A stretch of DNA of 64,000 bases from an uncultured Rhizobium sp. (GTDB taxonomy: Bacteria; Pseudomonadota; Alphaproteobacteria; Micropepsales; Micropepsaceae): contig CAZNGO010000043.1 of the NCBI GenBank assembly GCA_964572805.1, forward strand, positions 47,568-111,567, written 5' to 3'. The position numbers and the translations under genes were made by a program. Shown piece by piece: positions 45,475 through 64,000 of the stretch (positions within the stretch are counted from its first letter, which is position 1; each line of letters begins with the position of its first letter). Below the pieces are notes generated by a model, which was not told the origin of the DNA, searched no databases, and saw only the letters and a program-made list of their open reading frames with translations.

Positions 45475-45517
45475 ATGGCTGTCGCCCATATCCACACCGT
45501 CGCCTTCCAGGGCATAG
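45475..45517 (+). pseudogene. comM: comM/yifB 5' fragment (first 14 codons)
   Basis: ATG GCT GTC GCC CAT ATC CAC ACC GTC GCC TTC CAG GGC ATA G encodes MAVAHIHTVAFQGI. The reading frame continues exactly at 49822. Confidence 0.75.
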
Positions 45518-45541
45518 CGGTATTAGGTAGCGGATACAGAA
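45518..45541. repeat. left terminal inverted repeat of the transporter IS
   Basis: CGGTATTAGGTAGCGGATACAGAA. The reverse complement is present at 49797-49820. Confidence 0.9.
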
Positions 45542-45587
45542 GACCTTTTTCTTCTTCCTTCGGGGGTCCGGGGGTAATTTGCGCCCT

Positions 45588-45761
45588 ATGATGAGCCCCC
45601 GCGCAGCCCGGATCGTCTGGACAATCCTAATCATCCTGACGCTATGCGTCGCCTGTCTGTTCCTGGCAGGCGGCAGGCCCATTGCTTGGCCCCAATGGCT
45701 TAAAGCCGGGTGGGTGGTCGTCGTAGGCGGCATCGTCATCTACCAGCTTCGCAACAAATAG
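45588..45761 (+). CDS. small two-TM membrane protein (IS passenger)
   Basis: MMSPRAARIVWTILIILTLCVACLFLAGG...WVVVVGGIVIYQL. The TAG stop abuts the ATG of the next ORF. Confidence 0.45.
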   Translation: MMSPRAARIVWTILIILTLCVACLFLAGGRPIAWPQWLKAGWVVVVGGIVIYQLRNK

Positions 45762-46196
45762 ATGGCTGAGTCCCAAACCGTCACCACGCTGCGCAACAAG
45801 CGCGACGCCATAGCCGCTGCCATCGCCAGCTATGAGCGCCAGCTAGACCAAGCCCGGCACGATTTCACCCATGTCACCGCTGCCCTGGCGATCTTCGAGG
45901 CCCAGGACGAACCAGGCTCTCAAAGGGCCTATGTCGCCCTGCATCGCTTCTTCAAATACGGAGAGGTGGCGGCTATGTGCCGGGCCATGCTGGCGGACGG
46001 TCCCATGACCACGCCAGAACTGACCAAGCGGGTCATGGCCGACAAGGGAATGGACCCGGCAGACCGTGTGCTGGTCCAGACCGTCAATTTCACGGTGCTG
46101 CGGTCCATGCGGGGGATGGCAAAGCGCAAGACCGTCACCCAAGCTCGGAAGCGGGGCCGGTGCATATGGGCTATCGCCTGTCCCCAGAGCGGTTAA
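45762..46196 (+). CDS. coiled-coil plus putative winged-helix protein (IS passenger)
   Basis: N-terminal helix LRNKRDAIAAAIASYERQLDQARHDFTHVTAALAIFE. The C-terminal GPMTTPELTKRVMADKGMDPADRVLVQTVNFTVLRSM is wHTH-like. It resembles a hypothetical family I recall from alphaproteobacterial islands. Confidence 0.55.
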   Translation: MAESQTVTTLRNKRDAIAAAIASYERQLDQARHDFTHVTAALAIFEAQDEPGSQRAYVALHRFFKYGEVAAMCRAMLADGPMTTPELTKRVMADKGMDPADRVLVQTVNFTVLRSMRGMAKRKTVTQARKRGRCIWAIACPQSG

Positions 46197-46426
46197 TTAG
46201 GGCCAACGGGCAAAAAATATAGTCTTATATTTTCAATGGCTTATCGGCCTTTACGCCGCCGATGCCTAGATCTGCCGCTGGATTTTCTAGGATTTGCTCT
46301 GATTTTCGGCCAAGAGTTCCAAGGCCTGCTCGGCCAGCGCTTCGCCGTCGCTATAGCCGTTCTCTTCGCAGATGCGTTGTTTTGGCTTAAAGCCTTGGAA
46401 AACAACTAAGGATAGAATATTTCGCG

Positions 46427-47002
46427 ATGACAACCCTAACCTTGCAGCGCAACACCCTGTCTGCTAGTAGCGGCTCAACAGAATCGCTGCTTCGGGGATA
46501 TTGCTTGTCTGGAAGTAGGGGCGCGGCGCCGACAAGAGCGCGTAGGTTTTTCGCGGGGCTGAAGACATTCTCCGGGTTGAGTGCTGCGGCCGCGCTTTGG
46601 ATCGCGACGGCTGTTTTTGTCGCTTGCCCCGATAAGATCATGGACCTCAGCCAGCTCGCCCCCTCGTTTTTCGGGAGCGATGGCACTGACGTTCTGACCC
46701 ACGCGAATATTCTCGCGATCCTGGTGATCGCTGACATCTTCATCGCCACGATTGTTGTTGGCGACGAAGGAATGCGTCACGTGGTTTTCTCGCGAATCGG
46801 GTTTGGGATTTCCTTCGTTTGCATCGCAGCATTTCTGCTGGCTGACTTTTTTGGACTGCGCCAGCTTCGCCCGATGTTGGACCACAACGGGGCTCAATAT
46901 TTGCTCGCGGCGCTTGTTCTTATCTGCATTCCGCGTGGGCTGTCCTATTGGCGCCCTCAGGGAAAAGCGCAGCCAGTCCGTCATTCTGTCGGAGGGGGTT
47001 AA
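46427..47002 (+). CDS. polytopic membrane protein (IS passenger)
   Basis: About 4 hydrophobic helices. The stop lies 3 nt before the next ATG. The start is uncertain (46427, or an internal ATG near 46640). Confidence 0.45.
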   Translation: MTTLTLQRNTLSASSGSTESLLRGYCLSGSRGAAPTRARRFFAGLKTFSGLSAAAALWIATAVFVACPDKIMDLSQLAPSFFGSDGTDVLTHANILAILVIADIFIATIVVGDEGMRHVVFSRIGFGISFVCIAAFLLADFFGLRQLRPMLDHNGAQYLLAALVLICIPRGLSYWRPQGKAQPVRHSVGGG

Positions 47003-47005
47003 GCT

Positions 47006-47503
47006 ATGCTTTACGTGATAGCCGTCTCCATCGTGGTACTCGCGCTGATTTTCTTTACCTCGCCGAAGCGGTTCAATGTGAAAGCCTCCCGGCCTAGTGG
47101 CGTGCATCGCCATTCGGATCGCTGGTTTATGGCCGGACTTGCCCTGGACGCCAATGGAGCGCCCCTCAACACGGCGGGTAAGTTTATTGGACGCGTCGAT
47201 GGACAGTCGATGAACACCTACGGGATCCCCAGCGGTTCCACTGTCATTGCCAGCTATCTAAAAGATGCCGAGCGCAAACAGGTCAGTCACGGTGACATTC
47301 TCATTGTTGAGGATGCGCATCCGCATGGCAAAGCCTCTGAATATTGTCTCCGCAGGGTAGAGCGCGTCAAAAATGGCATGATTGAGTACTCGCCTGATAC
47401 TGGCGGGGATCATTGCCCACATGACGATGACAAAGCTGTAGCTATTGTTACGGCTTATGTTCCTCAAAAAAGGCTTCGCGGATTGTTCGAGGCTGCCGCC
47501 TAG
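47006..47503 (+). CDS. membrane-anchored S24 (LexA/signal-peptidase-like) domain protein (IS passenger)
   Basis: N-terminal TM MLYVIAVSIVVLALIFF. Then VDGQSMNTYGIPSGSTVIA...GDILIVED...RRVERVKNGMIEYSPD...AVAIVTAYV, which matches the S24 fold pattern. Confidence 0.6.
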   Translation: MLYVIAVSIVVLALIFFTSPKRFNVKASRPSGVHRHSDRWFMAGLALDANGAPLNTAGKFIGRVDGQSMNTYGIPSGSTVIASYLKDAERKQVSHGDILIVEDAHPHGKASEYCLRRVERVKNGMIEYSPDTGGDHCPHDDDKAVAIVTAYVPQKRLRGLFEAAA

Positions 47504-47609
47504 GCGCACGTGCAATTTCGCGAGTTGGCCCTCATTAGACCCTCTTCTGTGGTTTACTAATCTGTCGGCGGAAGACTGTGTTCGCCTCTGACACCCCGGC
47601 GCGAGCCCG

Positions 47610-48587
47610 TTACGCCACGCGCTCTGCCGGGGACCGGCGCTGCCAATACCCTTTCCACTGACGACTGACAGGATGCGTGGCCGCAGCCGTAACGATGGCG
47701 GCAAACTGCTCCCCATTGCTCACCCGGCGGCGATCCTCGCGCCAGTCCATTTCAGCGGCGTAGGATGCCAGATAGGGCCCGGCGATATGATGGTGCGTCC
47801 CGATTTCCGCGCGGCGCAGGCGGCTGAAAAAGCTTTCCGCCATATTGGTCGAGCAATCATCATCCTTGTAGCAGACTGAGTGATTGACGCGCTTGGTGTC
47901 GTACGAGGCATGGAAAGCGTCCCAGTGCGTAGCCTCATCGGCATAGACCGTGCTGCCAGGAGCAATCTTGCCATGCAGCGCCGGAACGGAGGCGGCTTCT
48001 GACTTGGCGGCGAAAGTGATGGTATTGCCGTTGCGCTCGCGCGCCACAATCACCGACTGGCGCTTGCCGGTTTGATTTTCAAGCAAGCGGCGGTCCTTGC
48101 GCGCCGCCTTATGATTTGCGGGCTTCACATAGCCGCCCACATACATGCCATCAATTTCAACATGGCCCGAGACTTTCTTTCCCGCATCTTCCGCCGCCAT
48201 CGCTTCCCGCAGCTTATGAGCCATCACGAAAGCGGTCTTGTATTGAACGTCCAGGTCACGGCTCAGTTGAAGCGCCGAAATGCCCTTTGCACCATTGGCG
48301 AAGATGGCGATGGCCGCGAGAATGTCCCGGATTGAAAGCTGGCGGCTTGAAAAGATCGTGCCGCTCGTGACCGAGAACTCCTTCTTGCAGCCTTTGCATT
48401 TCCAAACTTTGCGCGTCTGAAACCAATACAGGTCCACGCAGCCGCACTTGGGGCAGAAGGCCTCCCCGCCATTGGCAGCGAACCGAACCGCCTTGAAGGC
48501 GTCATAAGCCTCCTGGTCCGACATGCGCAGGACTTGGGCGAGGCTGACGGTCCGGGCGGCGCTGGAAAGGAGAAAGTGCTGGGCCAT
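47610..48587 (-). CDS. IS1595 family (ISXO2-like) transposase
   Basis: N-terminal zinc ribbon CPKCGC...CKGCKK. The DDE-type core has VEIDGMYVGG, VYADEATHW and NMAESFFSRLRR. Confidence 0.92.
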   Translation of the reverse strand: MAQHFLLSSAARTVSLAQVLRMSDQEAYDAFKAVRFAANGGEAFCPKCGCVDLYWFQTRKVWKCKGCKKEFSVTSGTIFSSRQLSIRDILAAIAIFANGAKGISALQLSRDLDVQYKTAFVMAHKLREAMAAEDAGKKVSGHVEIDGMYVGGYVKPANHKAARKDRRLLENQTGKRQSVIVARERNGNTITFAAKSEAASVPALHGKIAPGSTVYADEATHWDAFHASYDTKRVNHSVCYKDDDCSTNMAESFFSRLRRAEIGTHHHIAGPYLASYAAEMDWREDRRRVSNGEQFAAIVTAAATHPVSRQWKGYWQRRSPAERVA

Positions 48588-48690
48588 TTGTCATCGCATC
48601 CAGTGATATTACACACTGGATATAGCGATAGACCGCACCGGATGCAAGGGTTATTATCATCGGATATGATGATATTCATGGTCCGGACAG

Positions 48691-48945
48691 ATGCCGAAAA
48701 ACACCTATAAATCCAATGCCTTAACCCAGGAATATGAGGAAAAGGCCAAGAATCTGCTCAAGGGGGAATTGAAACGCAGGGGCGTGACCTATGCCCAGCT
48801 AGTCGAAAAGCTGGGGGCATTGGGTGTGCAAGAGACAGAACGCAACCTTGCCAATAAGATCAGCCGGGGCGGGTTTACGGGGGCGTTTCTAATCCAATGT
48901 CTCGACGCTATTGGCTGCCGCTCATTGCAGTTGTCGGACTCCTAG
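48691..48945 (+). CDS. DUF6471-like small HTH protein (IS passenger)
   Basis: KGELKRRGVTYAQLVEKLGALGVQETERNLANKISRGGFTGAFLIQCLDAIG. It is divergent from the transposase. Confidence 0.6.
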   Translation: MPKNTYKSNALTQEYEEKAKNLLKGELKRRGVTYAQLVEKLGALGVQETERNLANKISRGGFTGAFLIQCLDAIGCRSLQLSDS

Positions 48946-49742
48946 GGAGCGTACAGGCTCAGCCCGTACGTCAAAGCCCCAGCGGCCAAGCCGCCGCTCA
49001 GCAACGCAAGACCAAGCCAGCCGCCGACGCGCCACCAAGCATCCCTGTAACCGTCCAGAACGACATCCATGGCATCGCCAGCGCGCTGAAAACAGCGAAC
49101 GATAAGCAACCATCCAGCACAGACGAGCGCAATGCCAAGGCCCAGGAAGATGTAGCGTGGTGGACGCCCTGGCTGCTTTTGGTCGCCTTTCTGGAAATGC
49201 TCGTTACTGGCGCTGGCGTATGGCTGGTTTATCGCACTCTTTACCATACCAAGCGTGCAGCAGATGCCGCCCACGCAACAGTTCAATCCATGGAGTCTAC
49301 CTCCGCGCGGCAGTTGAGGGCTTACGTTCACGTTTGGAGATGCACCATGTCCATTTCTGAAGGTGCTGCCCACGTGAGGGTAAGGCTGGAAAACGCCGGC
49401 TCTACACCCGCTTATAAAGCCAGTGGATACGCAACAGTATGGGTGGATACTTTCCCCACCCCGCAGAACATTCCCACGACAAAACCCAAACTCGGAACTG
49501 ATATTGGGCCCGGAGGGAAAATGACTATGTGGAGACGAACTCCGATTTCGGATGCAGAAATGAAGCGGGTTACCGAAGGAACTCACGTAATATGGGTCAC
49601 TGGAATACTTGACTATCAAGATGCGTTCAAACAACCCAGACACGTAGACTTTCGTTACTTCCTTGCTGGCTATGAAGTCCCCAAGGCCATGACTGAAAAA
49701 GTCAGATTGAGCCTGTGCGAACAAGGCAACAATTCCGACTAG
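48897..49742 (+). CDS. membrane protein with signal-like N-terminus and one internal TM (IS passenger)
   Basis: MSRRYWLPLIAVVGLLGSVQA..., an internal helix WWTPWLLLVAFLEMLVTGAGVWLVY, and a beta-rich C-terminus. The antisense ORF 48942..49763 looks like a shadow. Confidence 0.5.
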   Translation: MSRRYWLPLIAVVGLLGSVQAQPVRQSPSGQAAAQQRKTKPAADAPPSIPVTVQNDIHGIASALKTANDKQPSSTDERNAKAQEDVAWWTPWLLLVAFLEMLVTGAGVWLVYRTLYHTKRAADAAHATVQSMESTSARQLRAYVHVWRCTMSISEGAAHVRVRLENAGSTPAYKASGYATVWVDTFPTPQNIPTTKPKLGTDIGPGGKMTMWRRTPISDAEMKRVTEGTHVIWVTGILDYQDAFKQPRHVDFRYFLAGYEVPKAMTEKVRLSLCEQGNNSD

Positions 49743-49796
49743 ACCCAGACTAGTTTTAAACACCGTTGCCTCCGGGGCAGCGGTATCAGGGGCGGT

Positions 49797-49820
49797 TTCT
49801 GTATCCGCTACCTAATACCG
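49797..49820. repeat. right terminal inverted repeat of the transporter IS
   Basis: TTCTGTATCCGCTACCTAATACCG is the exact reverse complement of 45518-45541. Confidence 0.9.
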
Positions 49821-50433
49821 GGGCATAGAAGCGCGTGACGTAGACGTGCAGGTGCATGTCGCCGAGGGCGGCAGCGGCCAGTTCACCATCGTCGGCCTGG
49901 CCGACAAGGCTGTCGCAGAAAGCCGCGAACGGGTGCGTTCGGCGCTGTCGGCCATCGGCCTGGCCATGCCGTTCCAGCGGGTGACGGTCAATCTCGCCCC
50001 CGCAGACCTGCCCAAGGAGGGCAGCCATTACGACCTGCCGATCGCGCTGGGGCTGCTGGCCGCGATGGGCGTGCTGCCCGCCAGCGAAATGGCGAATTAT
50101 GTCGCGCTGGGAGAATTGTCGCTGGATGCGGCGATCACCGCCGTGCCTGGCGTGCTGCCCGCCGCGCTGGCGGCCAGTGAACAGGGGCGCGGCCTGATCT
50201 GCCCGGAAGCCTGCGGGCCGGAAGCGGCCTTCGCCGGCGAGATTGAAATTCTCGCCGCCCCATCTCTGATCGGTCTGGTCAATCACATGAAAGGCGCGAC
50301 GGTGCTGGCCCCGCCTTCGCCAAAAGTGGCTTCGGCGGGCAGGCCCGCCCCTGACCTGCGCGACGTCAAGGGCCAGGAAAGCGCCAAGCGGGCGCTGGAA
50401 ATCACGGCGGCCGGCGGCCACAACCTGCTGATG
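49821..50433 (+). pseudogene. comM: comM/yifB middle fragment (N-terminal domain up to just before Walker A)
   Basis: GIEARDVDVQVHVAEGGSGQFTIVGLADKAVAESRERVRSAL...DLRDVKGQESAKRALEITAAGGHNLLM. ComM similarity ends at 50433. Confidence 0.9.
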
Positions 50434-50453
50434 TTGAGGTCTATATGCCCGGC
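50428..50453 (+). repeat. 26 bp direct repeat, copy 1 (comM/island junction)
   Basis: CTGATGTTGAGGTCTATATGCCCGGC is identical to 57757-57782. Confidence 0.9.
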
Positions 50454-50471
50454 GATAGCCGATGGTCCGAG

Positions 50472-50987
50472 CTACCTTTTCGCTTGCAAGTCGAAGACTG
50501 CTCCCAACTCTCCCTCAGATGAGCGAAATAACCGGTTCTTGCGAAATCCAAACACGCCAGAGCGGATCAAATACAATGCCCATTCCTTCGGCGCGACTAC
50601 CGCGAATACCATCGGATAACTCCCCTTTCGCGCCAGATTAAACCAACTGCCCGTATCAATAACTGATGGTTTGGGGCTGCCGTATGGATGGGTATGCCAC
50701 TCCCCGATAAATGTCGTGGTTTCACCAGACCTCCGCCAAGCCTTTGTGGCTGTCGATTGATGAATGGGGTCCTTTCTGACAAACGAGTATTGGCGGCGTT
50801 CGTCGCTCGGCCCCGAACGCGTGAAGTCAGTTACCTCAAGATGGGGACCGCGATAGCGCCCAAGCAGAATCCCACCATCCTCGACGAGGCCACGACATTT
50901 ATCGGCGGCTTCGTCCAGGAAGGCGATAACGGGGTAGTGAACCAAAACATGCGGATGCTTAAGCAGCACAGACCCGGCATCCAGCAA
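50472..50987 (-). CDS. cap3: CBASS Cap3 (JAB/MPN isopeptidase)
   Basis: JAMM motif GEWHTHPYGSPKPSVID. It lies immediately downstream of the E1/E2 gene. Confidence 0.85.
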   Translation of the reverse strand: MLDAGSVLLKHPHVLVHYPVIAFLDEAADKCRGLVEDGGILLGRYRGPHLEVTDFTRSGPSDERRQYSFVRKDPIHQSTATKAWRRSGETTTFIGEWHTHPYGSPKPSVIDTGSWFNLARKGSYPMVFAVVAPKEWALYLIRSGVFGFRKNRLFRSSEGELGAVFDLQAKR

Positions 50988-52617
50988 GCTTGGTGAGGTT
51001 CTGGTCTTTAGTCTGAAACGTTGCTGTTTCGTTGATCCTTATGGTCCGAAGACGCGGCGATGGAGTTCCTGCCACCCAATCAAGGGCCATTTGCACGCCC
51101 ATTCCCGATGCGATCCCGGATGGGCCTGGCCCATAAGCGAAATACGCACCCTCGCCGCAATTCGCGGGGACTAAGGCCGCTGGATGTTCTGGCTGCAAGA
51201 CACGAAATCGTTCTTTTCCATCAGCCTGAGTCAGGCAATCAAGGCAGCCGAAGGCGGGGTCGTCAACAAGAAGCGCGCGCGCTGCAACTCCGTTGCCTTC
51301 AAGCCAAACATGAAGATGGGCGGGCGCGACCTTTCCGGCCCTTCTTAGGCCGACAAGATGAGCGTTGATTGCACGAGAAACCGGTTGATCGCCGGTCGCA
51401 TCGACGACTAGATCATATCGCGCCAACTCATCGAGGTGTCGCAGCGCATCGTCATTAGTGGGTTGAGCGTTAATGCCTGGGTACGTGGCCTTCAGAAGCG
51501 CGCAGCATTCTGACGCCTTTGAAAGTCCGATTGACCGAAGGCCAAGAACGTGCCGCCCGACATTTCCCGGACTAAATAATTGTTGGTCCATCAAAGACAG
51601 ATAGCCGCCGCCAAAGCCAGCCCCAGCTTGCGCGAACAATTTCGCCAATTGCCCGCCAATGGTCCCGAGGCCCACTAGGACGATGCGCTTCTTATCCAAG
51701 CCGGGCTTTCCTCCGAGGTTCCGTTCAATAACGAACCGTTCGTCCGCCCGCTCTCCCGTCAACCTCGTAATGGGGATTTTATCTGCGAAGTGTTGAATCA
51801 GATATCGCCCAAAACCCTTAGTCTGTTGCGCCTTCACCAACCCCGGAGGAGGCTTTGCTATCGCGCCGACCGTGCCATTCTGGGCGGCCAAAATTACACA
51901 CATCGACGACAACCGCCGCTCTGCAAGACCATTAGTAATCTTTGTGTCCAAATCGAACTCAACTGATGCAGCCCATTTCAGCAGTTCATCCAACGTACTT
52001 GGCTGCACAAACGGACGCTTAAACGTAAGTGGGTTTTTCACCCTTATCACCCAGGCTCGTGGTGCGTTTCTCCAGACCTGGGCCTTCTGTGTCGCCGTCA
52101 TGCCGAAGCGATTGAGCGAATCCTCTCCTTTGCCTATCACCGATAACAGGTCCTGTTCGCGCTCTACCTGCAACAGCCTTGCCTCTCCGGATTTCGGCCA
52201 CTCCTCAGCAATGTAGAACCGGTCTCCGCGCCAGTGCTGCGGAAATTCAATTGCAATCTCCTCGCTCAGATCTTGGGTCAACATGCGCGCGAGCGCTTCA
52301 GTCATAGCGTTTACGCATCGAGTAACTGAAACGTCTGGCCGAAATGGGTCGAGTTGCATCTCGATATCTTGGGCGTAGCAAACGCGGTCGTCGTCTTCTA
52401 TGTGGGCGACTATCTCGGAAAACTGCTTCGCTCTATCGACGAGAAAGAGCCTGGGGATGCGCGTAAGCGTTGCATCCGTAAACAGTACCTCGACCTCCAC
52501 CGACGTATTATTCGGCCTTAGTACGCCTTTGAATTTTAAACCACGAGTTTGAGTGCGATCACGCTCGAAACCAAGCACGACCATGGTCTCGTGTATCACC
52601 CGCGCATTATCATCCAT
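50959..52617 (-). CDS. cap2: CBASS Cap2 (E2-like plus E1/ThiF-like fusion)
   Basis: N-terminal E2-like region with DDDRVCYAQ. The C-terminal ThiF/E1 Rossmann region has VLVGLGTIGGQLAKLFAQAGAG and a CLDC cysteine cluster. Its start shares one base with the CD-NTase stop (TGATG). Confidence 0.87.
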   Translation of the reverse strand: MDDNARVIHETMVVLGFERDRTQTRGLKFKGVLRPNNTSVEVEVLFTDATLTRIPRLFLVDRAKQFSEIVAHIEDDDRVCYAQDIEMQLDPFRPDVSVTRCVNAMTEALARMLTQDLSEEIAIEFPQHWRGDRFYIAEEWPKSGEARLLQVEREQDLLSVIGKGEDSLNRFGMTATQKAQVWRNAPRAWVIRVKNPLTFKRPFVQPSTLDELLKWAASVEFDLDTKITNGLAERRLSSMCVILAAQNGTVGAIAKPPPGLVKAQQTKGFGRYLIQHFADKIPITRLTGERADERFVIERNLGGKPGLDKKRIVLVGLGTIGGQLAKLFAQAGAGFGGGYLSLMDQQLFSPGNVGRHVLGLRSIGLSKASECCALLKATYPGINAQPTNDDALRHLDELARYDLVVDATGDQPVSRAINAHLVGLRRAGKVAPAHLHVWLEGNGVAARALLVDDPAFGCLDCLTQADGKERFRVLQPEHPAALVPANCGEGAYFAYGPGPSGIASGMGVQMALDWVAGTPSPRLRTIRINETATFQTKDQNLTKLAGCRVCAA

Positions 52618-53843
52618 CAGCCAGAACGAGTTCGGATAACGATGGGTGCCGATACTCTCGTGGCCTCGTATTGCCGGATCAGGCGCTCCGCCGTGACGGG
52701 GACAATCAATTCGGCGTCGTCCGGTATCCGCGAACCGAGAACCTCAACAAATCGAGCCAGAGAGAATTCTGTGTTCGATGTGCTTTGTATCGCGTCTGAC
52801 ACGCTCCTGTGAAGTGCCTTTGCCGCCTCGACATATTCCGCGCGTTGGGCTGCTGTCCATTCGCCATTCAAGACTTTCTGAAGGACAGGATTTGCTATGC
52901 CCCTTGGGTCAGCGAAAAAATCCGGAAGCTTTGAAGCCACTAGCAGGAGCGCCGCGTCGTCCCGTGCGCTATCGAAATTGCCCTGTAAGGAATCGAAAAC
53001 GTCCACGGCGCATTTCATCAAGGTGATCGAACTGACACGCGATGTCGTCTGCCAGCGGAAATCCCTCCACGCCTTAATATAGCGGCAAATGCGCACCAAC
53101 TGCTCGCCATGGGTTTTGACTGCCTCCACAAACCAATCTTCGATGGCCCGAGGATCAGATTCAGTCCAGCCTTCCGAGCGCTGCGCCAGCATGATCGTGT
53201 CGGTATCGAGATCGCGGTAAACTCGATCCGCGAACTCGTCGAAGGCCAGCAGCGCCGTATCATGGGCGAACAAGGAATCTGCCCGAGCGGCTTTTTCGAG
53301 TAACGTTGCGTATTCCTTATCGGGGATCGCGTAGAGCGCGATGTCGAGGTGAGAACGCGCATCAAGCTCGATCCGGACGCAGCAATCCTTCTGAATCATC
53401 TTCCAGTTTTGGGCCCTGCACAGCGGTTCAAGCGCCTTCTCCACTAGGAGGAAGTAGCCCTGGCTTGTGATGGCTGGTGACTGGCTGTTGCCTTGGACAA
53501 AGAACGAGACTGGCAGAAACATGCCATCATCGAAGTCGATCTGCTGACCGGTCCAGGCGGGTACATTCAGCGTTCGATATGCGTAGCTACCTTGCCTTCG
53601 AAATTTGGGGCTAAGGTTGGGGACAGGCATTCCAGCGCGAGCATAGGCGCGCTCAATCACCGTCTTGTCGTCGGCAAGCTGGTGCCAGTTCTTGAAGGCT
53701 AGGGTTATCGCGGTGCGCGCCTTGTCTCGGGCATTCCGGAGGCGGTTCAGCCTGTCTTCTGGCACTTCCAAAGATTCGAGAAAGGGCCGGTCGGCGCGCT
53801 GGCCGGAAAACAGAGAATGGGCATTCAAAATCGTCTGAATCAT
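52617..53843 (-). CDS. CD-NTase (cGAS/DncV-like nucleotidyltransferase)
   Basis: RRQGSYAYRTLN (G-S motif), QQIDFDDGMFLP (DxD) and SHLDIALYAIP (third Asp). Length 408 aa, with a C-terminal ...RTRSG. Confidence 0.9.
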   Translation of the reverse strand: MIQTILNAHSLFSGQRADRPFLESLEVPEDRLNRLRNARDKARTAITLAFKNWHQLADDKTVIERAYARAGMPVPNLSPKFRRQGSYAYRTLNVPAWTGQQIDFDDGMFLPVSFFVQGNSQSPAITSQGYFLLVEKALEPLCRAQNWKMIQKDCCVRIELDARSHLDIALYAIPDKEYATLLEKAARADSLFAHDTALLAFDEFADRVYRDLDTDTIMLAQRSEGWTESDPRAIEDWFVEAVKTHGEQLVRICRYIKAWRDFRWQTTSRVSSITLMKCAVDVFDSLQGNFDSARDDAALLLVASKLPDFFADPRGIANPVLQKVLNGEWTAAQRAEYVEAAKALHRSVSDAIQSTSNTEFSLARFVEVLGSRIPDDAELIVPVTAERLIRQYEATRVSAPIVIRTRSG

Positions 53844-53917
53844 AATATCCTACCTTGGGCTTCCAGCCCCTTCTTGACGACCTCCCTCACCCCCAAAGGG
53901 TCACGCCAAACGTTATC

Positions 53918-55099: not shown

Positions 55100-55132
55100 G
55101 CGAATGACCGCTTCTGACCCAAAGCGGACATT
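55100..55132. repeat. REP-like hairpin repeat, copy A
   Basis: GCGAATGACCGCTTCTGACCCAAAGCGGACATT. It matches 57692-57724 at 29 of 33 positions and contains the CCGCTT/AAGCGG stem. Confidence 0.75.
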
Positions 55133-57691: not shown

Positions 57692-57724
57692 GCGAACGAC
57701 CGCTTTTGGCGCAAAGCGGACATT
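57692..57724. repeat. REP-like hairpin repeat, copy B
   Basis: GCGAACGACCGCTTTTGGCGCAAAGCGGACATT. The stem is CCGCTTT/AAAGCGG. Confidence 0.75.
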
Positions 57725-57756
57725 GCGAATGTCACGAAATTGGTAGGCTCACCTTC

Positions 57757-57782
57757 CTGATGTTGAGGTCTATATGCCCGGC
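57757..57782 (+). repeat. 26 bp direct repeat, copy 2 (boundary between island modules)
   Basis: CTGATGTTGAGGTCTATATGCCCGGC is identical to 50428-50453. Confidence 0.9.
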
Positions 57783-57797
57783 TGCAAACGGAATGGT

Positions 57798-58106
57798 CTA
57801 ATTGAGCGGAACATTGTGCTCGGCCATACACTGCCGGAATACATATTTGGCCTGCTGGTCAACGTTCATAAAGCCGTTGTCTTCGACCTTGCCCGTTGCC
57901 GCGTTGTAGTAGGCGTCAAAATGCTTGTAGGAGTCACCGTATGCTGGGTTTGGGTCTGGCATGTTGCGGACGTACAGAACACAGTCAGCAATCACCTTCT
58001 TTATCACCGCGCTTATGGCAGGTTTTTTTGGGGAACTTGCCTGTTGACCGAATGTGGGCAGAGTTGCCGTAGCCATTAGGAATACCGCAGCCACTAGCCT
58101 TTTCAT
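57798..58106 (-). CDS. small secreted protein, unknown function
   Basis: The ATG at 58106 gives MKRLVAAVFLMATATLPTFGQQ (signal). It has two Cys residues. There is a 1-nt gap to the stop of the upstream ORF. Confidence 0.5.
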   Translation of the reverse strand: MKRLVAAVFLMATATLPTFGQQASSPKKPAISAVIKKVIADCVLYVRNMPDPNPAYGDSYKHFDAYYNAATGKVEDNGFMNVDQQAKYVFRQCMAEHNVPLN

Positions 58107-58107
58107 T

Positions 58108-58431
58108 TTATAACCCCTTCCAGCCCTCAACGGCGGCGACAACGCTAGCCACGGCGGCAACCAGTGAAAGCGCCAGCAGGACGCTATAGCCGATCCTGTC
58201 CATCAAGATACGCCAGCGGATGACCGCTACCAGTTCCACCCGGCTTATCAGACCGTCGCTGAGGCGAAGTAGATCGTCACTGGTGCCTTGGTAGATGCGG
58301 CGTAGGTCGTCGGTGGTGTAAAGTTTCAAATCGGCGGCGTTGCGGCCTGAGATTTTCCGCAAGACGCAAATTACATCCCACCATGTCATCAAGTGGACGG
58401 TCTGCTTCGGGCCGGGGATTGCCATAGGCAC
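58108..58431 (-). CDS. tail-anchored small membrane protein, unknown function
   Basis: Soluble N-terminal roughly 70 aa, then a C-terminal TM YSVLLALSLVAAVASVVAAV. The start is 58431 or 58389. Confidence 0.42.
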   Translation of the reverse strand: MPMAIPGPKQTVHLMTWWDVICVLRKISGRNAADLKLYTTDDLRRIYQGTSDDLLRLSDGLISRVELVAVIRWRILMDRIGYSVLLALSLVAAVASVVAAVEGWKGL

Positions 58432-58594
58432 AGCATACCCGATTTTCAGTCAGCGCTAGACCTGTCGGGCAGCCGGTTGCCGGAAAAGCACGATGGGGCC
58501 GCCAAGGGGCCCCCGGCACGTCGCCAATTTTTCTAGGTGAACTCGCCTATCGGCTCGCCAAGCCTTCGGCTTGGGCTGGCGCTCGGCCTATGCC

Positions 58595-59308
58595 TCAGGC
58601 GGCAGGACGCTCCAGCCCAAGCCGGTCCCGCAGCCGCCGGACTGACGTTTCATGCCAGCGACCGCCCTCGCGGCGCGTTTCGATTCCGTTGTCGTTAAGC
58701 TGCTTCGCAATGGCCTTGTCACTTAGACCTTGGGCGACGTAGGGAGCGATAAAGTCTTTCATTCCATTTGCGAACTTGTCCGCCGCCTGTTCCGCGCCCT
58801 CAACTGCCGCCACATTGCCATACAGGGCGACATGCGCGACCAATGGGGCCGCTCCGCCGGGCCCGCCTAGCTTGATGCCACGCGCAACAGCAGCCGCCAG
58901 CGCCGCCTTGGTTCGGGCTGAGATTGCCCTAGCCTCCTCCTCAGCCACCACGGCCATAATGCCAAGCTGTAGGGTGCTGGCGTGGGGCGTATCGGCAAAG
59001 ACCACCTTGACCTTGGAGTCGTCCAACAACGTCAGAACCTCGCTGGCGCGCCTGCCGATGCGGTCCAGCTTCGCCACTACAAGCGTTGACCGGGTAGCCT
59101 TTGCCAAGGCTATGGCCCTTTTGAGCGCCGGGCGGGCCTTTAGGCCGGACTTTACCTCCCTGAAGCTTTCGACAACGCGGGCATTGTGGAAGGCCACGTA
59201 GTCAGCCAGCAGCTTGTCCTGAGCCGCCATGCCGAGCCCGTTCATGCCCTGTGTCCGGGCCGTGCTGACGCGGGTGTAAGTCACCACCTTTTTGACCGTT
59301 TGCAGCAT
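58595..59308 (-). CDS. small serine recombinase (resolvase/invertase family)
   Basis: The ATG at 59308 gives MLQTVKKVVTYTRVSTARTQ (catalytic Ser context). LVVAKLDRIGRR is present. The C-terminus has LNDNGIETRREGGRWHETSVRRL. Confidence 0.9.
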   Translation of the reverse strand: MLQTVKKVVTYTRVSTARTQGMNGLGMAAQDKLLADYVAFHNARVVESFREVKSGLKARPALKRAIALAKATRSTLVVAKLDRIGRRASEVLTLLDDSKVKVVFADTPHASTLQLGIMAVVAEEEARAISARTKAALAAAVARGIKLGGPGGAAPLVAHVALYGNVAAVEGAEQAADKFANGMKDFIAPYVAQGLSDKAIAKQLNDNGIETRREGGRWHETSVRRLRDRLGLERPAA

Positions 59309-59310
59309 AA

Positions 59311-59346
59311 ACACAATCTCCCTAACGCCCGTTCGGGAGATTGTGT
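59311..59346 (-). promoter_or_regulatory. 12 bp perfect inverted repeat over the recombinase ribosome-binding site
   Basis: ACACAATCTCCC, a 12 nt spacer, then GGGAGATTGTGT. On the mRNA the 3' arm contains the GGGAG Shine-Dalgarno sequence 9 nt from the ATG. Confidence 0.6.
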
Positions 59347-59687
59347 GGCATGGCATTGTGAGGGAGTCAAACGGGGTCCGGGGGCGATTTGGCCGGTCTG
59401 GCTGGCTTGACTGCATCGGTTGAGCGCAGCCGCCCGCGTGGCAGGGCGCGAGGATCGCGCCGGAGGCGCGGGCCGAGTTAGCAGGGCAGACAGGACCGCC
59501 GGAGCCGCCCTTAGCTGCCCCCGCAAAAGCCAAAATAAATAGGATTATTCTCCGTGTACGGACTTTCTACAGGCGGTGACGGGCAGGAAAGCTGATTATT
59601 TGGCCGATGAATCTGCTGGGTACGTGTTTACACCGGATACTTTGGTACCAACCCATCTTGGGGCGAGAAATGCCAGCGGAGGGGCAC

Positions 59688-59727
59688 AAAAAAGCCCCTT
59701 CGCAGCAGAGCAGTGCTGCGAAGGGGC
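59688..59727 (-). terminator. strong rho-independent terminator (minus strand)
   Basis: On the minus strand: GCCCCTTCGCAGCA-CTGCTC-TGCTGCGAAGGGGC followed by TTTTTT. The stem is a perfect 14 bp. Confidence 0.78.
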
Positions 59728-59998
59728 CGAGCGGTTGAGCGTCAAGGGGATGCGGCGGTGTTGCAAGTCGCGGCATAGCTGCCGACGCGGACCGTTGGAC
59801 ATAGTATCTCGCGCATCGCGGGACAGGTCAACGAATCCATGTACGCGCTTCGCGCGCTTGCCCGCCTGCGGCGGCAAGTCTGCGATCATCACATCGGAAA
59901 AGGCGAACAGCCCGCGCGGTGTGAAGGCGCGCGGGCCGCTCGGATCGTCCGGAGAGGGGCAGACGATGTTCCGGTAAATCCGGGGGCGCTTGGTATTA

Positions 59999-60121
59999 TT
60001 GTCCCCTGTCCCCCCAGAATTCAAAGATTTGAAATCTACTTGAAAACGATACGTAACGCCCTCCGTACGTATGGCGGGGGGTACGCGCCCCCCCGTTCCG
60101 TTGGGGGGACACGGGGGACAA
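59999..60121. repeat. structured G/C-tract inverted repeats around an AT-rich core (candidate ori or recombination site)
   Basis: TTGTCCCCTGTCCCCCC (59999-60015) pairs with GGGGGGACACGGGGGACAA (60103-60121). Between them lie AGATTTGAAATCT, two TACGTA boxes and GGGGGGTACGCGCCCCCCC. Confidence 0.4.
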
Positions 60122-60123
60122 CA

Positions 60124-61569
60124 TCATTCCGGGCTGCGTTCGTAACCCCGCTTCGGATTCTTTTCTCCATCTACGCGAGGCTTCACGCGCCGCCAGCCGA
60201 GGCGCCTCAGAATACCGCCAATCCTTTTCGCATCGGTTTCCCTCATTTGCAGCTTTTCCAGCCCAATGGCGTCTTTAAGAATTTCGGCAGAGGTCACAAA
60301 CAACAAACCCGGGTTTGCCGCCAAATAGGCTGCGACCAAATCTTCCCACGGTTCCTCGACCGTCCGCGAAGCTTGGATTGCGCGGGCAACCTCCCAGAGG
60401 TTTTCCGGCAAAACTGTGGAGTAGCCGTCGCGATACATCGCCAACGCCTCCGCCCACAATTGCAAACGGTCCCGTTCAAACTCTGTCGGCTTCAAATCTG
60501 TTGTTTCCACCGGCAGGTACCGGCGATTGCCTGTTTTGTCCTGCAAGTAGATCGACTCATTGGTAGTGGCGATAAAGATTCCCCTGCGAGGAAAATCCTT
60601 AACTGCACGACCATAGGGCAGGCGAATGCGATCTGTCTGCCGCGAGTTAAACGCCTTCATCGCGTTCAAATCGGCCCGCGAGGCAACATCTAGTTCCGCC
60701 CATTCAATGATGTTCTTTCCCTGAATCTTTTGAATCGTGTCCTTGCTGCGCACGTCTCCAATATCCGGGTCAGCGTAAAATTCTCCGCCAAGGGTCCGCA
60801 ACATAGCGGACTTGCCCTTGCCCTGAATCTCGCCTTCTAAAACGAGCATAGTGTCAAACTTGCAGCCCGGCTCATATTCGCGCTTGATTGCGCCTACAAG
60901 CGTGATTGACCCAGCGGCGCTAACATACGCGCGTTGCTTCTGTTTCCATTCGCGCTCCTCCTTGGAGTCGCTGTCCTCGTCCTCAGGCGATACAGCGCCA
61001 AAATACACCGCTAAAAAAGTCGGAACCCGCTTAATGCCGTCATGCTTGGGAAGGGATTCGAGAAACTCCCTAAATGGCGCGACCGGATTTTGCTGACAGA
61101 GTGTTTCGACAGCTTCCCAGACATGCTGCTTCGTAAACTCGGCATCGGTATTGAAATGCAAGAAATCGCGGATTTCGATGGCAAGCTTGTCATCCATCGT
61201 TTCGCCGAAATGTGACTTAGACCACGGAACGGAGTGGCCACGAAAGAGATAGTCGCCCGTTGTAATGTCATAGGCGAAACCCCAATCCTGCTTTTCGAGT
61301 AGCAAAAGTGCGTTTGTGTAAGTTGGCCGAATTGAACCATCATCCTCGATACTGACCGAGGGCGGAATAACGAAACCAAGCGTGGTCCGCTTCGCCATTG
61401 CCTTTTGCTTCTTTGATAGCTTTTTTGCGCTTCGCTTTGCTCGATCAATTTCATTGCGGCGTTCGCGCTTCGCTTCGGCCGCTTCCTCAGGTGTAAGGCT
61501 AACCGGAACATCCTCAAAAATGTTCTCGGTTTGATTAGTGTCAGTAATTGCTTTGGTCATTTTCTTCAC
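60124..61569 (-). CDS. VirE-family (virulence-associated protein E) helicase/NTPase
   Basis: Walker A LEGEIQGKGKSAMLRTLG, FIATTNE, RRYLPV. It lies next to a PrimPol gene. Confidence 0.87.
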   Translation of the reverse strand: MKKMTKAITDTNQTENIFEDVPVSLTPEEAAEAKRERRNEIDRAKRSAKKLSKKQKAMAKRTTLGFVIPPSVSIEDDGSIRPTYTNALLLLEKQDWGFAYDITTGDYLFRGHSVPWSKSHFGETMDDKLAIEIRDFLHFNTDAEFTKQHVWEAVETLCQQNPVAPFREFLESLPKHDGIKRVPTFLAVYFGAVSPEDEDSDSKEEREWKQKQRAYVSAAGSITLVGAIKREYEPGCKFDTMLVLEGEIQGKGKSAMLRTLGGEFYADPDIGDVRSKDTIQKIQGKNIIEWAELDVASRADLNAMKAFNSRQTDRIRLPYGRAVKDFPRRGIFIATTNESIYLQDKTGNRRYLPVETTDLKPTEFERDRLQLWAEALAMYRDGYSTVLPENLWEVARAIQASRTVEEPWEDLVAAYLAANPGLLFVTSAEILKDAIGLEKLQMRETDAKRIGGILRRLGWRRVKPRVDGEKNPKRGYERSPE

Positions 61570-62518
61570 ACTGCATTACAAAAGCTCGCGCCCGTTCGAT
61601 TGCGCGAGGCAAATCCGGTCCGGACATGTAGCGCCTGACATCGCGTCCCGGACCTTTGGGCGCGGTATCAATCATCATCCTCAGCGCGGACATGATTGGT
61701 TCATCCGGCGCGTCAACGCCGGACATAAAGAAATAGCGGATTGCGTTTTTGTAGATCGGTTTGTCAAAGCCGCCGAAGCCGGGGCCGTCGCCGATAAGCA
61801 ACGACGCCGGATCGTGTTCGCGCTTAACGCGCGGGCCGCGACTAACTGGCGATGATGTACGCGGGCGCTCTGACGTTTCGCCGTCCAAATCCTTTTTCGG
61901 AAGGAACTCCCACCATGCAGCGGGGCATTCCGCCAGTTCAACCTCGCCCGGAGCGCAACCGGGAGACCACTGGTAGCGCGGGCCATACGAATGAAGGTTG
62001 CCGGGGATGACCGCGTATCCATGCCACCCACGGACATCAATTTTCGGGTAGCCGGGTAAACCCTGTTGGTTCATCCGGTCATCGCTGCCGGGCGGCGGGC
62101 GAAGCCAGATATGCTCCCCGCCATCAGGACGCCCAGACCTCACCCGCCACGTATTACGCGGCAATGTGCCGAGTACGGATTCAGCCTTTGCAAGAGACGC
62201 GCGACCTTCCTCTCCATCCACATCAATAATGACAACCCCACCATCGCGGCCAGTTAAAATCAGCCAGCCGGGATTGCGCTTGCGGACATGCCATGACGCG
62301 ATGACTTGAGGGCTGGATGACGCCCTGAATTGAAACTTTCCGATTGCTGGCTTTTTTGTTTCCCGGACACCGGGGAAGGGACGCAAGCCGTGCTCTGCAC
62401 CAAGCAACAAGGCCACCGGGAGCGGATGCGGCGCGCGATAACCCGCGCCTGCAATGCGGGGATCGAGGTTTTGAGACACGAGGGCGCGCTCGACGCGCGC
62501 AATGGCTTCGGAGTTCAT
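61541..62518 (-). CDS. bifunctional DNA primase/polymerase (PrimPol, AEP family)
   Basis: GVVIIDVDGEEG (DxD) and VRSGRPDGGEHIWLRPP (sGxGgxH). Confidence 0.83.
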   Translation of the reverse strand: MNSEAIARVERALVSQNLDPRIAGAGYRAPHPLPVALLLGAEHGLRPFPGVRETKKPAIGKFQFRASSSPQVIASWHVRKRNPGWLILTGRDGGVVIIDVDGEEGRASLAKAESVLGTLPRNTWRVRSGRPDGGEHIWLRPPPGSDDRMNQQGLPGYPKIDVRGWHGYAVIPGNLHSYGPRYQWSPGCAPGEVELAECPAAWWEFLPKKDLDGETSERPRTSSPVSRGPRVKREHDPASLLIGDGPGFGGFDKPIYKNAIRYFFMSGVDAPDEPIMSALRMMIDTAPKGPGRDVRRYMSGPDLPRAIERARAFVMQCEENDQSNY

Positions 62519-62709
62519 GCTTGCAACACTATTCAGCGCCGCGCCGTGGGGCGCGAACGGTTACGGCGTTAGGTGCCTTGGAACCTTGATCCCATTAGCC
62601 TGCTTGGTTGGATAGCGGCTGCGGCGGGATCGCCGTGGGGGTCCATTGGGCGGACCCCATCCCTAGAAAATCAGACTGCCAGACTTTCTGGCGCTGTCAA
62701 GAATTGCGA

Positions 62710-63033
62710 CTAGCCCACCGCCACGTCCACGATCCGCACCGCCAACGCGGCGAGCGATCCGGGCTTATCCATGAGTATCTTTTGCCCATCAATATGAACC
62801 GCCATGCCATCTACCTTGACGCCCACAACGCGGCCCTTGCCGCTGGACTCGGTCAAATAGAGCAAGCCGCTCGCCCGGCTGGTGCCCAGTTCCAGACTGA
62901 GCCGGACGTTGAAGCCTTGCGTTTCTAGGCTGGATTGGGCCGCCGTAATCGCGGCGCAAAGAGTGGAGCGGACGAGCGACTCCATCGCCAGCCCGTCCGG
63001 GGCGGTTGCATCAAGTGCAGCGATTGCGTTCAT
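62710..63033 (-). CDS. hypothetical protein
   Basis: 107 aa. Four-nt overlap with the upstream ORF. No family was recognised. Confidence 0.42.
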   Translation of the reverse strand: MNAIAALDATAPDGLAMESLVRSTLCAAITAAQSSLETQGFNVRLSLELGTSRASGLLYLTESSGKGRVVGVKVDGMAVHIDGQKILMDKPGSLAALAVRIVDVAVG

Positions 63034-63452
63034 GACAGAGACCGCCCTTCCGCCGCGCCGCGTGATACAGGAGCGGAAAATGCCGACGCTTGGGCCTCAG
63101 CCATGCAAATCAGTGACATCAGGTAATCAGCCAACCTTTGGGTACCGGACGCCCCGGCCAGAAATAGCTCGTCGCCCCCGATGCGCAAGCAACTCACGCC
63201 GGTGATTTTGACCGGGTACGTAAAGGAGTCGCGGCCCACCTCAATCCGCAGCAGCGCCGCGTTCGTTTCTTTCATAAAATCGAGCGTGACGTGCGTCGCG
63301 CGACCTTGACGGATCAGGTACTGGCAAAGTTCGGCGACCGTTGCCGCGAGCAACCCGCGTGACGTTGCGTTGCCATTGCTGCCGCAGCCGCCGGCATAAT
63401 GCGTCAAGTTCGGCGCAAAAAGATCGGGCGCTGCGGCCTTGGACTTAGCCAT
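63030..63452 (-). CDS. hypothetical protein
   Basis: 140 aa. Overlaps the neighbouring ORFs at both ends, consistent with an operon. No family was recognised. Confidence 0.42.
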   Translation of the reverse strand: MAKSKAAAPDLFAPNLTHYAGGCGSNGNATSRGLLAATVAELCQYLIRQGRATHVTLDFMKETNAALLRIEVGRDSFTYPVKITGVSCLRIGGDELFLAGASGTQRLADYLMSLICMAEAQASAFSAPVSRGAAEGRSLS

Positions 63453-63771
63453 TTGCGCGCTTCCTATGCCGCCGCGAAACCTCCGCCAGCGTAGCCACAG
63501 CTTCCAGCCTCTGCTTCGCAGACAGGCGGTGCTTTTGGGCCGCTGGGACTGGCGATGGTGGGTAGCGCGTTTCCAGCACGAGCAGATCAGCGGGCGTGCA
63601 ATCTAACTCGCGGCAGAGCCGCGCCAGACGGTCGAAACTGATGCACTGGACGCGCCCACGCTTCATCTGGGAAAAATTGCTTTCGCGCACGCCAATGGCC
63701 CGCGCAACGTCGCGGCCCGTGCGACCGGAACGCGCCAGCATTTCTGCCAAACGGAATTTGACGACCTGCAT
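63445..63771 (-). CDS. XRE-family HTH regulator
   Basis: The ATG at 63771 gives MQVVKFRLAEMLARSGRTGRDVARAIGVRESNFSQMKRGRVQCISFDRLARLCRELDCTPADLL. Confidence 0.75.
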   Translation of the reverse strand: MQVVKFRLAEMLARSGRTGRDVARAIGVRESNFSQMKRGRVQCISFDRLARLCRELDCTPADLLVLETRYPPSPVPAAQKHRLSAKQRLEAVATLAEVSRRHRKRANG

Positions 63772-63980
63772 TAGACCCTCCCTTCGGCGCGAGCGTTGGC
63801 GAAATGGAGCTTCTCGACCGGCGTCATCTTTGCGAACGCGGCGCGTTGCGCAGCAGTCAACGGGGGCGGCGTATAAACATCGCGCTTCTTGGGGCGGAAA
63901 GTTTGTTCCCATTCCGCAACGCTTTGTTTCAAGGCGGGCGGCAACGTGCTGATGTCTCCGGCGGGCAAGACCACCGCCAA
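63771..63980 (-). CDS. hypothetical small protein
   Basis: 69 aa. Its TAA stop shares one base with the ATG of the XRE gene (TAATG). Confidence 0.4.
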   Translation of the reverse strand: MAVVLPAGDISTLPPALKQSVAEWEQTFRPKKRDVYTPPPLTAAQRAAFAKMTPVEKLHFANARAEGRV

Positions 63981-64000
63981 ATCGTCGTAGCAACCCGGAT

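Follow-up and report, generated by a model that had tools for sequence, protein, structure and literature searches.

Structure of the comM locus

comM (yifB) is known as a dispensable gene for an AAA+ helicase that functions in natural transformation. In the 64,000-nucleotide stretch of contig CAZNGO010000043.1, from a soil alphaproteobacterium, that was analyzed here (hereafter, the window), comM is interrupted at codon 14 by a cargo-carrying insertion sequence (IS) of the IS1595 family and again after codon 216, at the codons for Walker A, by a 15.9-kb island that carries the gene for a large serine recombinase (LSR) near its right end (Table 1). The inserted DNA amounts to ~20.3 kb in total (4,311 bp plus 15,948 bp). 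When both inserts are taken out in silico, an uninterrupted ComM open reading frame (ORF) is obtained, and the comM fragments themselves contain no stops or frameshifts. We conclude that comM has very probably been inactivated by two unrelated mobile elements, an IS1595-family element at codon 14 and an LSR element after codon 216, the island most likely having grown by tandem accretion. This agrees with an earlier reading of the same DNA, made from the sequence only, which had proposed at least two independent insertions into this gene; we can now describe them as DDE transposition at codon 14 and LSR integration at the Walker A codons.

The sequence-only reading had taken the ATG at 45475 as the start of comM, and the translation from this codon bears it out. 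It had also observed that the frame restarts at 49822 (GIEARDVDVQ...ITAAGGHNLLM). The restart is real and needs one correction, in that 49821-49828 is the second copy of a target duplication and unique comM sequence, codons 15-216, occupies 49829-50433 (605 bp). Compared with Pfam, the joined 216-aa fragment matches ChlI (PF13541, 6.5e-40) and covers only profile positions 1-27 of Mg_chelatase (PF01078). The fragment is 86% identical to amino acids 6-217 of a 505-aa ComM. When the full-length 505-aa ComM of an 88%-identical relative was used as a tblastn query, the sole match in the window was to amino acids 6-217 (49801-50436), and amino acids 218-505 found no match in any frame of the 64 kb, confirming that 50434-64000 does not encode the remainder of the protein. 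A change in base composition near 45.5 kb is likewise confirmed: GC is 0.661 upstream of 45475 and 0.52-0.59 in the inserted DNA, and the comM piece that lies between the two insertions has a host-like GC content.

Table 1. Features of the interrupted comM locus. Positions are those of the window; positions beyond 64000 are window equivalents taken from a public contig.
Feature	Position	Strand	Details
comM codons 1-14 and first base of codon 15	45475..45517	+	translation MAVAHIHTVAFQGI; joining to 49829 onward gives continuous N-terminus
IS1595-family cargo-carrying insertion sequence ("transporter IS"), 4,303 bp	45518..49820		GC 0.564
Accessory gene, 144 aa	45762..46196	+	next to left repeat; long N-terminal helix, then winged helix
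Cargo ORF, 191-aa multi-pass membrane protein	46427-47002	+	Pfam
Cargo ORF, 165 aa	47006-47503	+	sub-threshold Peptidase_S24 match (Pfam)
IS1595-family DDE transposase, 325 aa, N-terminal zinc ribbon	47610..48587	-	PF12762 1.7e-40, PF12760 8.3e-11
281-aa membrane-anchored protein	48897..49742	+	recurrent cargo family, 11/36 complete elements
Target duplication copy 2 and comM codons 15-216	49821..50433	+	ends ...AAGGHNLLM; GC 0.688
attL	50412..50456	+	comM arm ...GGCCACAACCTG, putative crossover CT (50428-50429), element arm GATGTTGAGGTCTATATGCCCGG
Cap3 (JAB)	50472-50987	-	PADLOC JAB 1.5e-32; Pfam
Cap2 (E2/E1)	50959-52617	-	PADLOC E1-E2 2.8e-121; Pfam
CD-NTase	52617-53843	-	PADLOC Cyclase 1.6e-119; Pfam
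Two-transmembrane (2TM) effector	53855-54604	+	PADLOC 2.3e-49
Degenerate element-arm copy in hairpin (GCCGGGCTATATGCCCGGC), then 33-nt palindromic repeat (55100-55132)	55046..55132	+	repeats D6, D10; alignment
238-aa protein, HExxH motif (HECEH)	55358-56074	+	translation
509-aa protein, FGE-sulfatase domain	56109-57638	+	PF03781 1.2e-48
Second 33-nt palindromic repeat (57692-57724), then internal attL-like site (57750-57782)	57692..57782	+	repeats D8, D10
LSR element, 8.6 kb, left 6.2 kb in window	57763..64000, end at 66381	-	Pfam, gene calls on L001
Small serine recombinase	58595-59308	-	Pfam
VapE-type helicase	60124-61560	-	PHROG helicase 1.3e-80
PrimPol	61541-62518	-	PHROG primase 1.3e-19
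Helix-turn-helix (HTH) regulator	63445-63771	-	Pfam
LSR, 558 aa	~64654-66330 (beyond window)	-	PF00239, PF07508, PF13408; PHROG integrase 4.1e-81

An IS1595-family element at codon 14

The element at codon 14 is bounded by inverted repeats, CGGTATTAGGTAGCGGATACAGAA, that are identical at 24 of 24 positions (45518-45541 and 49797-49820) and is flanked by a perfect 8-bp target duplication, GGGCATAG (copy 1 at 45510-45517, copy 2 at 49821-49828). Removal of the element together with one copy of the duplication regains the reading frame exactly. Since the repeats are perfect over their whole length, the duplication is perfect over 8 bp and excision of the inserts restores the ComM frame, the interruption is not a matter of chance. 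Both hallmarks of the IS1595 family are present, namely a DDE transposase with a zinc ribbon, and terminal repeats with an 8-bp duplication. The transposase is 86% identical to that of one related element (L003) and 88.7% identical to that of another (L178). Insertion would have proceeded by DDE transposition into codon 14, with an 8-bp staggered cut giving rise to the duplication.

Among the cargo of this element, the ORFs between 46427 and 47503 have no PADLOC match and no relative in other elements of the IS family; a 212-aa antisense ORF overlaps them, and codon-position GC gives no decision between the two strands. Likewise, the 281-aa membrane-anchored protein has no match in Pfam or PADLOC. 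None of the element's cargo matches any PADLOC defence model, and the element DNA has no match in the plasmid collection.

A large serine recombinase element at the Walker A codons

Extension of the contig to the right had been suggested in the earlier reading as the way to find the 3' half of comM. We drew on two public contigs assembled by another pipeline, an 8.7-kb sequencing-run contig (L001) and a second contig (L168). L001 matches window positions 57696-64000 with 0 mismatches over 6,305 bp and runs on for 2,403 bp beyond the window. This extension contains the LSR gene, followed by ...ACAACATGCTGATG|ATCGGCCCGCCGGGCGCCGGCA (also as ...CCGGGTATAAAGACTACAACATGCTGATG|ATCGGCCCGCCGGGCGCCGGCA), which encodes LLM|IGPPGAG. 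The remainder of comM thus begins at Walker A, ~2.4 kb past the window end, and has probably not been lost. Given that comM resumes right after the LSR gene, the second break represents an attL/attR pair around a 15.9-kb island. The attL junction is also present on L168, with 0 mismatches to the window.

The 558-aa protein encoded on L001 has the Resolvase catalytic, Recombinase and zinc-ribbon domains of an LSR. The two junctions share the block TGCTGATG (50426-50433), and the crossover therefore lies inside that block. Thus, the earlier statement that resemblance to ComM ends after 50433 holds, and its placement of the breakpoint exactly at 50433/50434 does not. Inverted-repeat arms around a central dinucleotide are the usual anatomy of an LSR attP. 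By inspection of the sequence, the attP arms of this element form an inverted repeat around a central CT in which 18 of 23 bases are identical. The same CT is common to attL and attR in the window and in two related loci (L123 and L038), and we infer that it is the crossover dinucleotide. Under this model, the LSR would join the element's attP, reconstructed as CCGGGTATAAAGACTACAACATG-CT-GATGTTGAGGTCTATATGCCCGG, with a comM target, ...CACAACCTG-CT-GATGATCGGCCCGCCGGGC, that encodes the start of Walker A. The products would be attL at 50434 and attR ~2.4 kb past the window. The junctions predicted for the reverse reaction are CACAACCTGCTGATGATCGGCCCGCC for the empty attB and GACTACAACATGCTGATGTTGAGGTCTATATG for the excised attP.

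LSRs are found at this Walker A position in a further seven loci, facing either way, with identities that run from 73% (L169) through 68% (L172), 53% (L103), 44% (L123) and 36% (L032) to 34% (L038). One of these loci, L172, has in addition a 505-aa second serine recombinase after a 134-aa comM fragment (L172:8062-9956), a case that belongs with the amino acid ~347 hot spot described below. Genes of the Mg-chelatase family are the top LSR target, accounting for 12.4% of site-specific LSRs (Durrant et al. 2022, PMC10083194). The element described here resembles the LSR elements of that study in its three-domain recombinase (Resolvase, Recombinase, Zn_ribbon_recom), its inverted-repeat attP and its site within a ComM-family coding sequence. 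It differs in that the study names neither this lineage nor its alphaproteobacterial, Rhizomicrobium-like hosts, and in that the Walker A codons with a putative CT core and the tandem defence module are specific to this locus.

An interruption of this kind could in principle be a reversible switch of the kind formed by the Listeria comK prophage and by Bacillus skin and SPbeta; regulated LSR excision would then restore comM. Precise excision would indeed give an in-frame Walker A, and the comM fragments are free of stops and frameshifts. However, even after excision comM would stay disrupted by the IS at codon 14, one relative (L005) shows irreversible decay with loss of comM amino acids 218-310, and no directionality factor was recognized among the PHROGs matches. 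We therefore consider a switch highly improbable at this locus.

Another possibility is that the architecture is a chimera of assembly or binning at repeated att-like sequences in a metagenome. The relatives are metagenome-assembled genomes, the window seems metagenome-assembled as well, and public contigs break exactly at a pair of 33-nt repeats within the island. Yet L001 and L168, which come from another pipeline, show attL, the internal att-like site described below and attR without a single mismatch, the boundaries of both insertions are of textbook form and the ORF is restored when the inserts are removed, and the same architectures are found in the unrelated assemblies L169, L103, L123 and L178. 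An artifact of this sort is hardly credible.

Gene content and probable composite structure of the island

The left 7.3 kb of the island contains no recombinase. It encodes a type II cyclic oligonucleotide-based antiphage signaling system (CBASS) that is complete by Pfam and PADLOC, with all four components (CD-NTase, Cap2, Cap3 and 2TM effector) in one operon (50472..54604), together with a secreted 90-aa protein, an HExxH protein and an FGE-sulfatase-domain protein. All CBASS components are strong matches and nothing unusual was detected in them; the HExxH and FGE-domain proteins have no PADLOC match.

The remaining 8.6 kb is the LSR element, which has two small ORFs beside the small recombinase and two more between the PrimPol and HTH regulator genes in addition to those in Table 1. 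Its PHROGs matches are to integrase, repressor, primase, helicase and invertase only, with no structural gene. We considered a prophage or phage satellite and rejected it, as the element has no virion structural or packaging genes, no satellite hallmark genes and no close IMG/VR relatives; searches of viral contigs in IMG/VR with the LSR and attP found nothing close. In its mode of action it may correspond to a small integrative element that brings along a replication module, satellite-like or similar to an integrative mobilizable element.

Between the two parts lies an internal attL-like site that matches 50421-50453 at 30 of 33 bases, with the putative CT at 57757-57758. Among the bases repeated in this internal copy are 13 nt that, at the true attL, belong to the flank and not to the element (CACCTTCCTGATG vs CAACCTGCTGATG). 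In the closest LSR relative (L169), a 9.5-kb element with the same gene order adjoins comM directly, without the CBASS module. We propose that the 15.9-kb insert would have formed by tandem accretion of a 7.3-kb recombinase-less CBASS module and an 8.6-kb self-integrating LSR element, joined at the internal attL-like site, and we regard this as the most likely history. The island would then be composite, and there were probably three or more events in all, the order of which is a matter of reconstruction.

Alternatively, the island could be one LSR element with the CBASS and FGE genes as cargo, the internal att-like copy and the arm-like hairpin being due to chance or local duplication. We judge this unlikely, though it deserves serious consideration: there is a single LSR gene, L169 likewise carries variable cargo from the small recombinase to attL, and neither att arm is a good match for the left arm at the internal site. 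A duplication of element DNA only, however, would not hold the 13 extra-element nucleotides, the three island segments differ in GC (0.555, 0.524 and 0.586), and an LSR-less remnant with the same arm exists in L005.

Several observations weigh against our overall account of the locus. The right end, comprising the LSR gene, attR and the 3' part of comM, is seen on L001 only, outside the window, and there the downstream comM is visible for only 22 nt, through the Walker A sequence IGPPGAG. The dinucleotide is not invariant, as attL of L169 has TT and its attR has CT. There is no sign of current activity, neither the excised attP nor the empty attB having been found in IMG/VR. At the internal site, the left arm (GGTAGGCTCACCTTC) agrees with comM at 14 of 21 bases and with the element arm at 10 of 21, and a reaction between attP and attR is not usual for LSRs. 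This uncertain fit makes the route of accretion uncertain. Being nearer to comM than to the element arm, the internal left arm may have served as a pseudo-attB.

A comparable arrangement is the accretion of ICESt1/ICESt3 integrative and conjugative elements with cis-mobilizable elements, which uses tyrosine recombinases, enzymes with more latitude to join attP-like sites and att flanks. The likeness lies in a recombinase-less module in tandem with a recombinase-bearing element, with shared att-type junctions. The recombinase here is an LSR, however, and accretion by this route would be unusual.

The 33-nt repeat is present as two direct copies, 88% identical, that bracket the HExxH/FGE module. 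Each copy is an 11-2-11 palindrome, GACCGCTTCTG-AC-CCAAAGCGGAC and GACCGCTTTTG-GC-GCAAAGCGGAC. This layout recalls the crossover site of a small serine recombinase, and a gene for such a protein lies at 58595-59308; the central dinucleotides of the two copies differ. The possibility of a genome-wide repetitive extragenic palindromic element was dismissed, as only two copies occur in 64 kb (0 expected). Public contigs break at these repeats, and the left end of L001 lies inside one of them. Close by, at 55051-55069, is a hairpin with a perfect 7-bp stem, GCCGGGC-TATAT-GCCCGGC. From its sequence, this hairpin could consist of the outer parts of both attP arms fused without the core, and it may be a relic of a third att site.

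comM in related genomes

We surveyed 80 alphaproteobacterial species representatives for comM. A full-length comM frame is present in ~60 of the 80; four more run off their contigs, and in the others the gene is interrupted, carries a frameshift or ends in an aberrant C-terminus. The closest relatives have intact genes of 505-506 aa, with identities of 88% for L008 and 78-80% for the Rhizomicrobium representatives L009-L011. The comparison with empty sites in relatives, proposed in the earlier reading, thus finds uninterrupted alleles and not a universally interrupted arrangement. Given that the nearest relatives keep an intact comM, the insertions are recent and polymorphic. A contrary impression, that no intact comM exists in the clade, came from the best 120 protein matches, none of which exceeds 389 aa. 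The genome census contradicts it, and we dropped the list as evidence because it is biased: intact ComM of 505 aa is encoded by the clade's own species representatives. Ranked lists from a word-indexed protein search can thus mislead as a count of truncated and intact genes.

The interrupted alleles of relatives cluster at Walker A, amino acid ~244, amino acid 279, Walker B (amino acid 307) and amino acid ~347, and double hits in comM also occur in L103, L123 and L169. The earlier description of comM as a sink for mobile and defence DNA is well supported by these sites and by the complete CBASS in the window. In L005 (L005:10001-15106), comM amino acids 218-310 are gone between two insertion sites, and a 3.8-kb recombinase-less remnant spans Walker A to Walker B. 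The left arm of this remnant is of the LSR type found in the window, and the locus represents irreversible decay after a double hit.

At the amino acid ~347 hot spot, ten relatives end exactly in ...AAMNP (P0029, P0046 and P0101 among the proteins; L017:10001-11086). The interrupted proteins at the amino acid 244 and Walker B sites carry read-through tails such as GMGAQTHL, GIGEQTHLN, HAIMAQTHL and HGILAQKPLF (P0057, P0033, P0016, P0069, P0076). These tails imply another element end sequence, perhaps from a diverged branch of the same IS family, of which L096 may be an example.

An IS1595 lineage that recurs in comM

To place the codon-14 element among its kin, we drew a sample of 80 metagenome loci, chosen solely for the similarity of their transposases (58-83% identity). 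In 29 of these 80 loci, comM fragments abut the element. The sample yielded 32 complete elements with perfect 8-bp duplications, ranging from 2.6 to 6.3 kb, all of which carry cargo; perfect 8-bp duplications were found for 36 related elements. Half of the 32 are located in comM, with 11 in Walker B, at the E-F codons of DELPEF, and 5 at an E-A-L codon near amino acid 244; the remaining 16 lie at 16 unrelated loci. Each of the three comM sites is occupied in both orientations. At Walker B, the register of the duplication varies by 1 nt (GGAATTCC vs GAATTCCA). A transposase tree shows the site classes intermingled, with sister transposases at different comM sites (L024 at Walker B vs L123 at site 2; L125 vs L157). 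The window copy itself belongs to a clade otherwise located at Walker B, yet is inserted at codon 14.

The same codon 14 is occupied in L178, whose ComM is 92% identical, by a 4,089-bp element in the opposite orientation with the duplication AGGCATCG. Its cargo, encoding SocA_Panacea, Fic and DUF6471 proteins, differs from that of the window element, and the codon-14 site has been reused independently in L178. Toxin- or defence-like cargo of this kind is seen in related elements at L178:4154-7333, where these three genes lie, and at L170:3912-6741, which encodes an N6/N4 DNA methyltransferase and two partners. Across the 36 elements, 80 cargo ORFs have no relative in any other element.

A gene for the 144-aa protein is present in 32 of the 36 complete elements; it accompanies 20 of 20 comM-sited copies and 11 of 16 located elsewhere (Fisher p = 0.012, a weak test). 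The protein has no sequence match in Pfam or PDB. AlphaFold2 models it with a pLDDT (predicted local distance difference test) of 85.8 as a winged helix preceded by a long helix, and in Foldseek the model finds only weak winged-helix matches of the ArsR, Fur and PadR types (E >= 5e-3). A common motif for the three comM target sites was sought and discarded; a weak GRRWWYYC bias is not convincing, and site 2 does not fit it.

Target-specific transposition is our best reading of this recurrence. Its main rival is that a few ancestral comM::IS alleles have spread by homologous recombination, through transformation or gene-transfer agents, with inversion between the repeats explaining the two orientations. 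The conserved flanks in comM are compatible with such spread, AbaR islands are known to spread in this way (PMC11441513), and duplication copies would stay identical under either model. However, the same sites are used in hosts with a ComM no more than 52-68% identical to the reference, by elements with transposases 53-66% identical. In addition, both orientations occur at all three sites, the Walker B duplication has a 1-nt shift in register, closely paired transposases in the tree occupy different comM sites, and 16 other complete copies are at unrelated loci. Allele spread accordingly seems to us rather improbable as the source of the pattern.

Beyond target-specific transposition itself, we tentatively suggest that the codon-14 element may belong to an undescribed comM-homing IS1595 lineage in which the accessory protein acts as a target selector by analogy with TnsD/TniQ, giving elements with toxin- and defence-like cargo a safe site that disables transformation. 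The full proposal is speculative, and the selector role of the accessory protein is offered as a hypothesis only. The functional analogy to Tn7 TnsD/TniQ lies in the combination of a DDE element with an accessory DNA-binding protein, the use of a conserved coding sequence as a safe landing site and insertion elsewhere as well. The differences are that TnsABC is absent, that insertion is inside the gene and not downstream of it, that both orientations are used and that the accessory protein's part in targeting is hypothetical.

Within the IS1595 family, insertion sequences of the ISNha5/ISNwi1 type, or "transporter IS," also carry passenger genes. The window element is like these in having DDE_Tnp_IS1595 and zinc ribbon domains, terminal repeats, an 8-bp duplication and passenger genes inside. 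It differs from them in that its lineage has a conserved winged-helix second gene and uses three exact comM codons, which account for half of the sampled complete copies. We found no report in the literature of gene-specific targeting for the IS1595 family and no paper linking IS1595 and comM, the sole co-mention being unrelated.

Relation to other comM islands

The sequence-only reading had likened this locus to the AbaR-type islands of Acinetobacter. AbaR-type islands are Tn7-like transposons with TnsABC and a TnsD/TniQ-like selector that generate a 5-bp duplication. The comparison is apt for the choice of target and fails for the mechanism, which here consists of serine recombination and IS1595 transposition; an AbaR/Tn7-like or tyrosine-integrase island was rejected, as no TnsA, TnsB, TnsC, TnsD/TniQ or tyrosine-integrase genes are present among 20 proteins (45.7-64 kb) or on L001. 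For the AbaR/Tn6022-type islands in A. baumannii comM, which are large, the proposed benefit is the blocking of transformation-mediated removal (PMC11441513, PMC7508600). The window shares with them the target gene and the large accessory islands, and loss of ComM might protect its elements from removal by transformation in the same manner. Croucher et al. (2016, PMC4774983) describe integrase-bearing islands in the comM genes of Aggregatibacter, Mannheimia, Francisella and Pseudomonas syringae, where, as here, different mobile elements have settled at an orthologous position within the gene in several genera. Those islands differ from the present one in having gammaproteobacterial hosts and an integrase family defined by similarity to CF65_00446, and they were compared at the gene level.

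Mobile genetic elements were already known to insert into comM, and LSRs to target genes of this family, and CBASS as island cargo is expected. The locus adds an alphaproteobacterial example to the convergence of mobile elements on comM, one in which a CBASS rides in such an island. What goes beyond the literature searched is an IS1595 lineage that preferentially lands in comM and has a conserved, predicted DNA-binding partner. Gene-specific targeting is rare among DDE insertion sequences, and here three precise comM codons are used across diverse hosts, in a gene that also takes in an LSR lineage at Walker A and, near amino acid 347, other recombinases. That at least three mechanistically unrelated element classes converge on the most conserved, motif-coding DNA of comM strengthens the hypothesis that parasites silence transformation. 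The two-gene IS system also offers a compact setting in which to dissect target selection by a simple insertion sequence.

Other features of the window

ARAGORN reported a tRNA-His (anticodon ATG, 81 nt, 48463-48543, minus strand) that lies inside the transposase coding sequence and is most likely a false positive. Rfam gave no matches across 44-64 kb. Upstream of comM, we observed dips in GC at 2001-3000 (0.588) and at 38001-41000 (0.617-0.638), compared with ~0.67, which may represent further acquired DNA or RNA genes.

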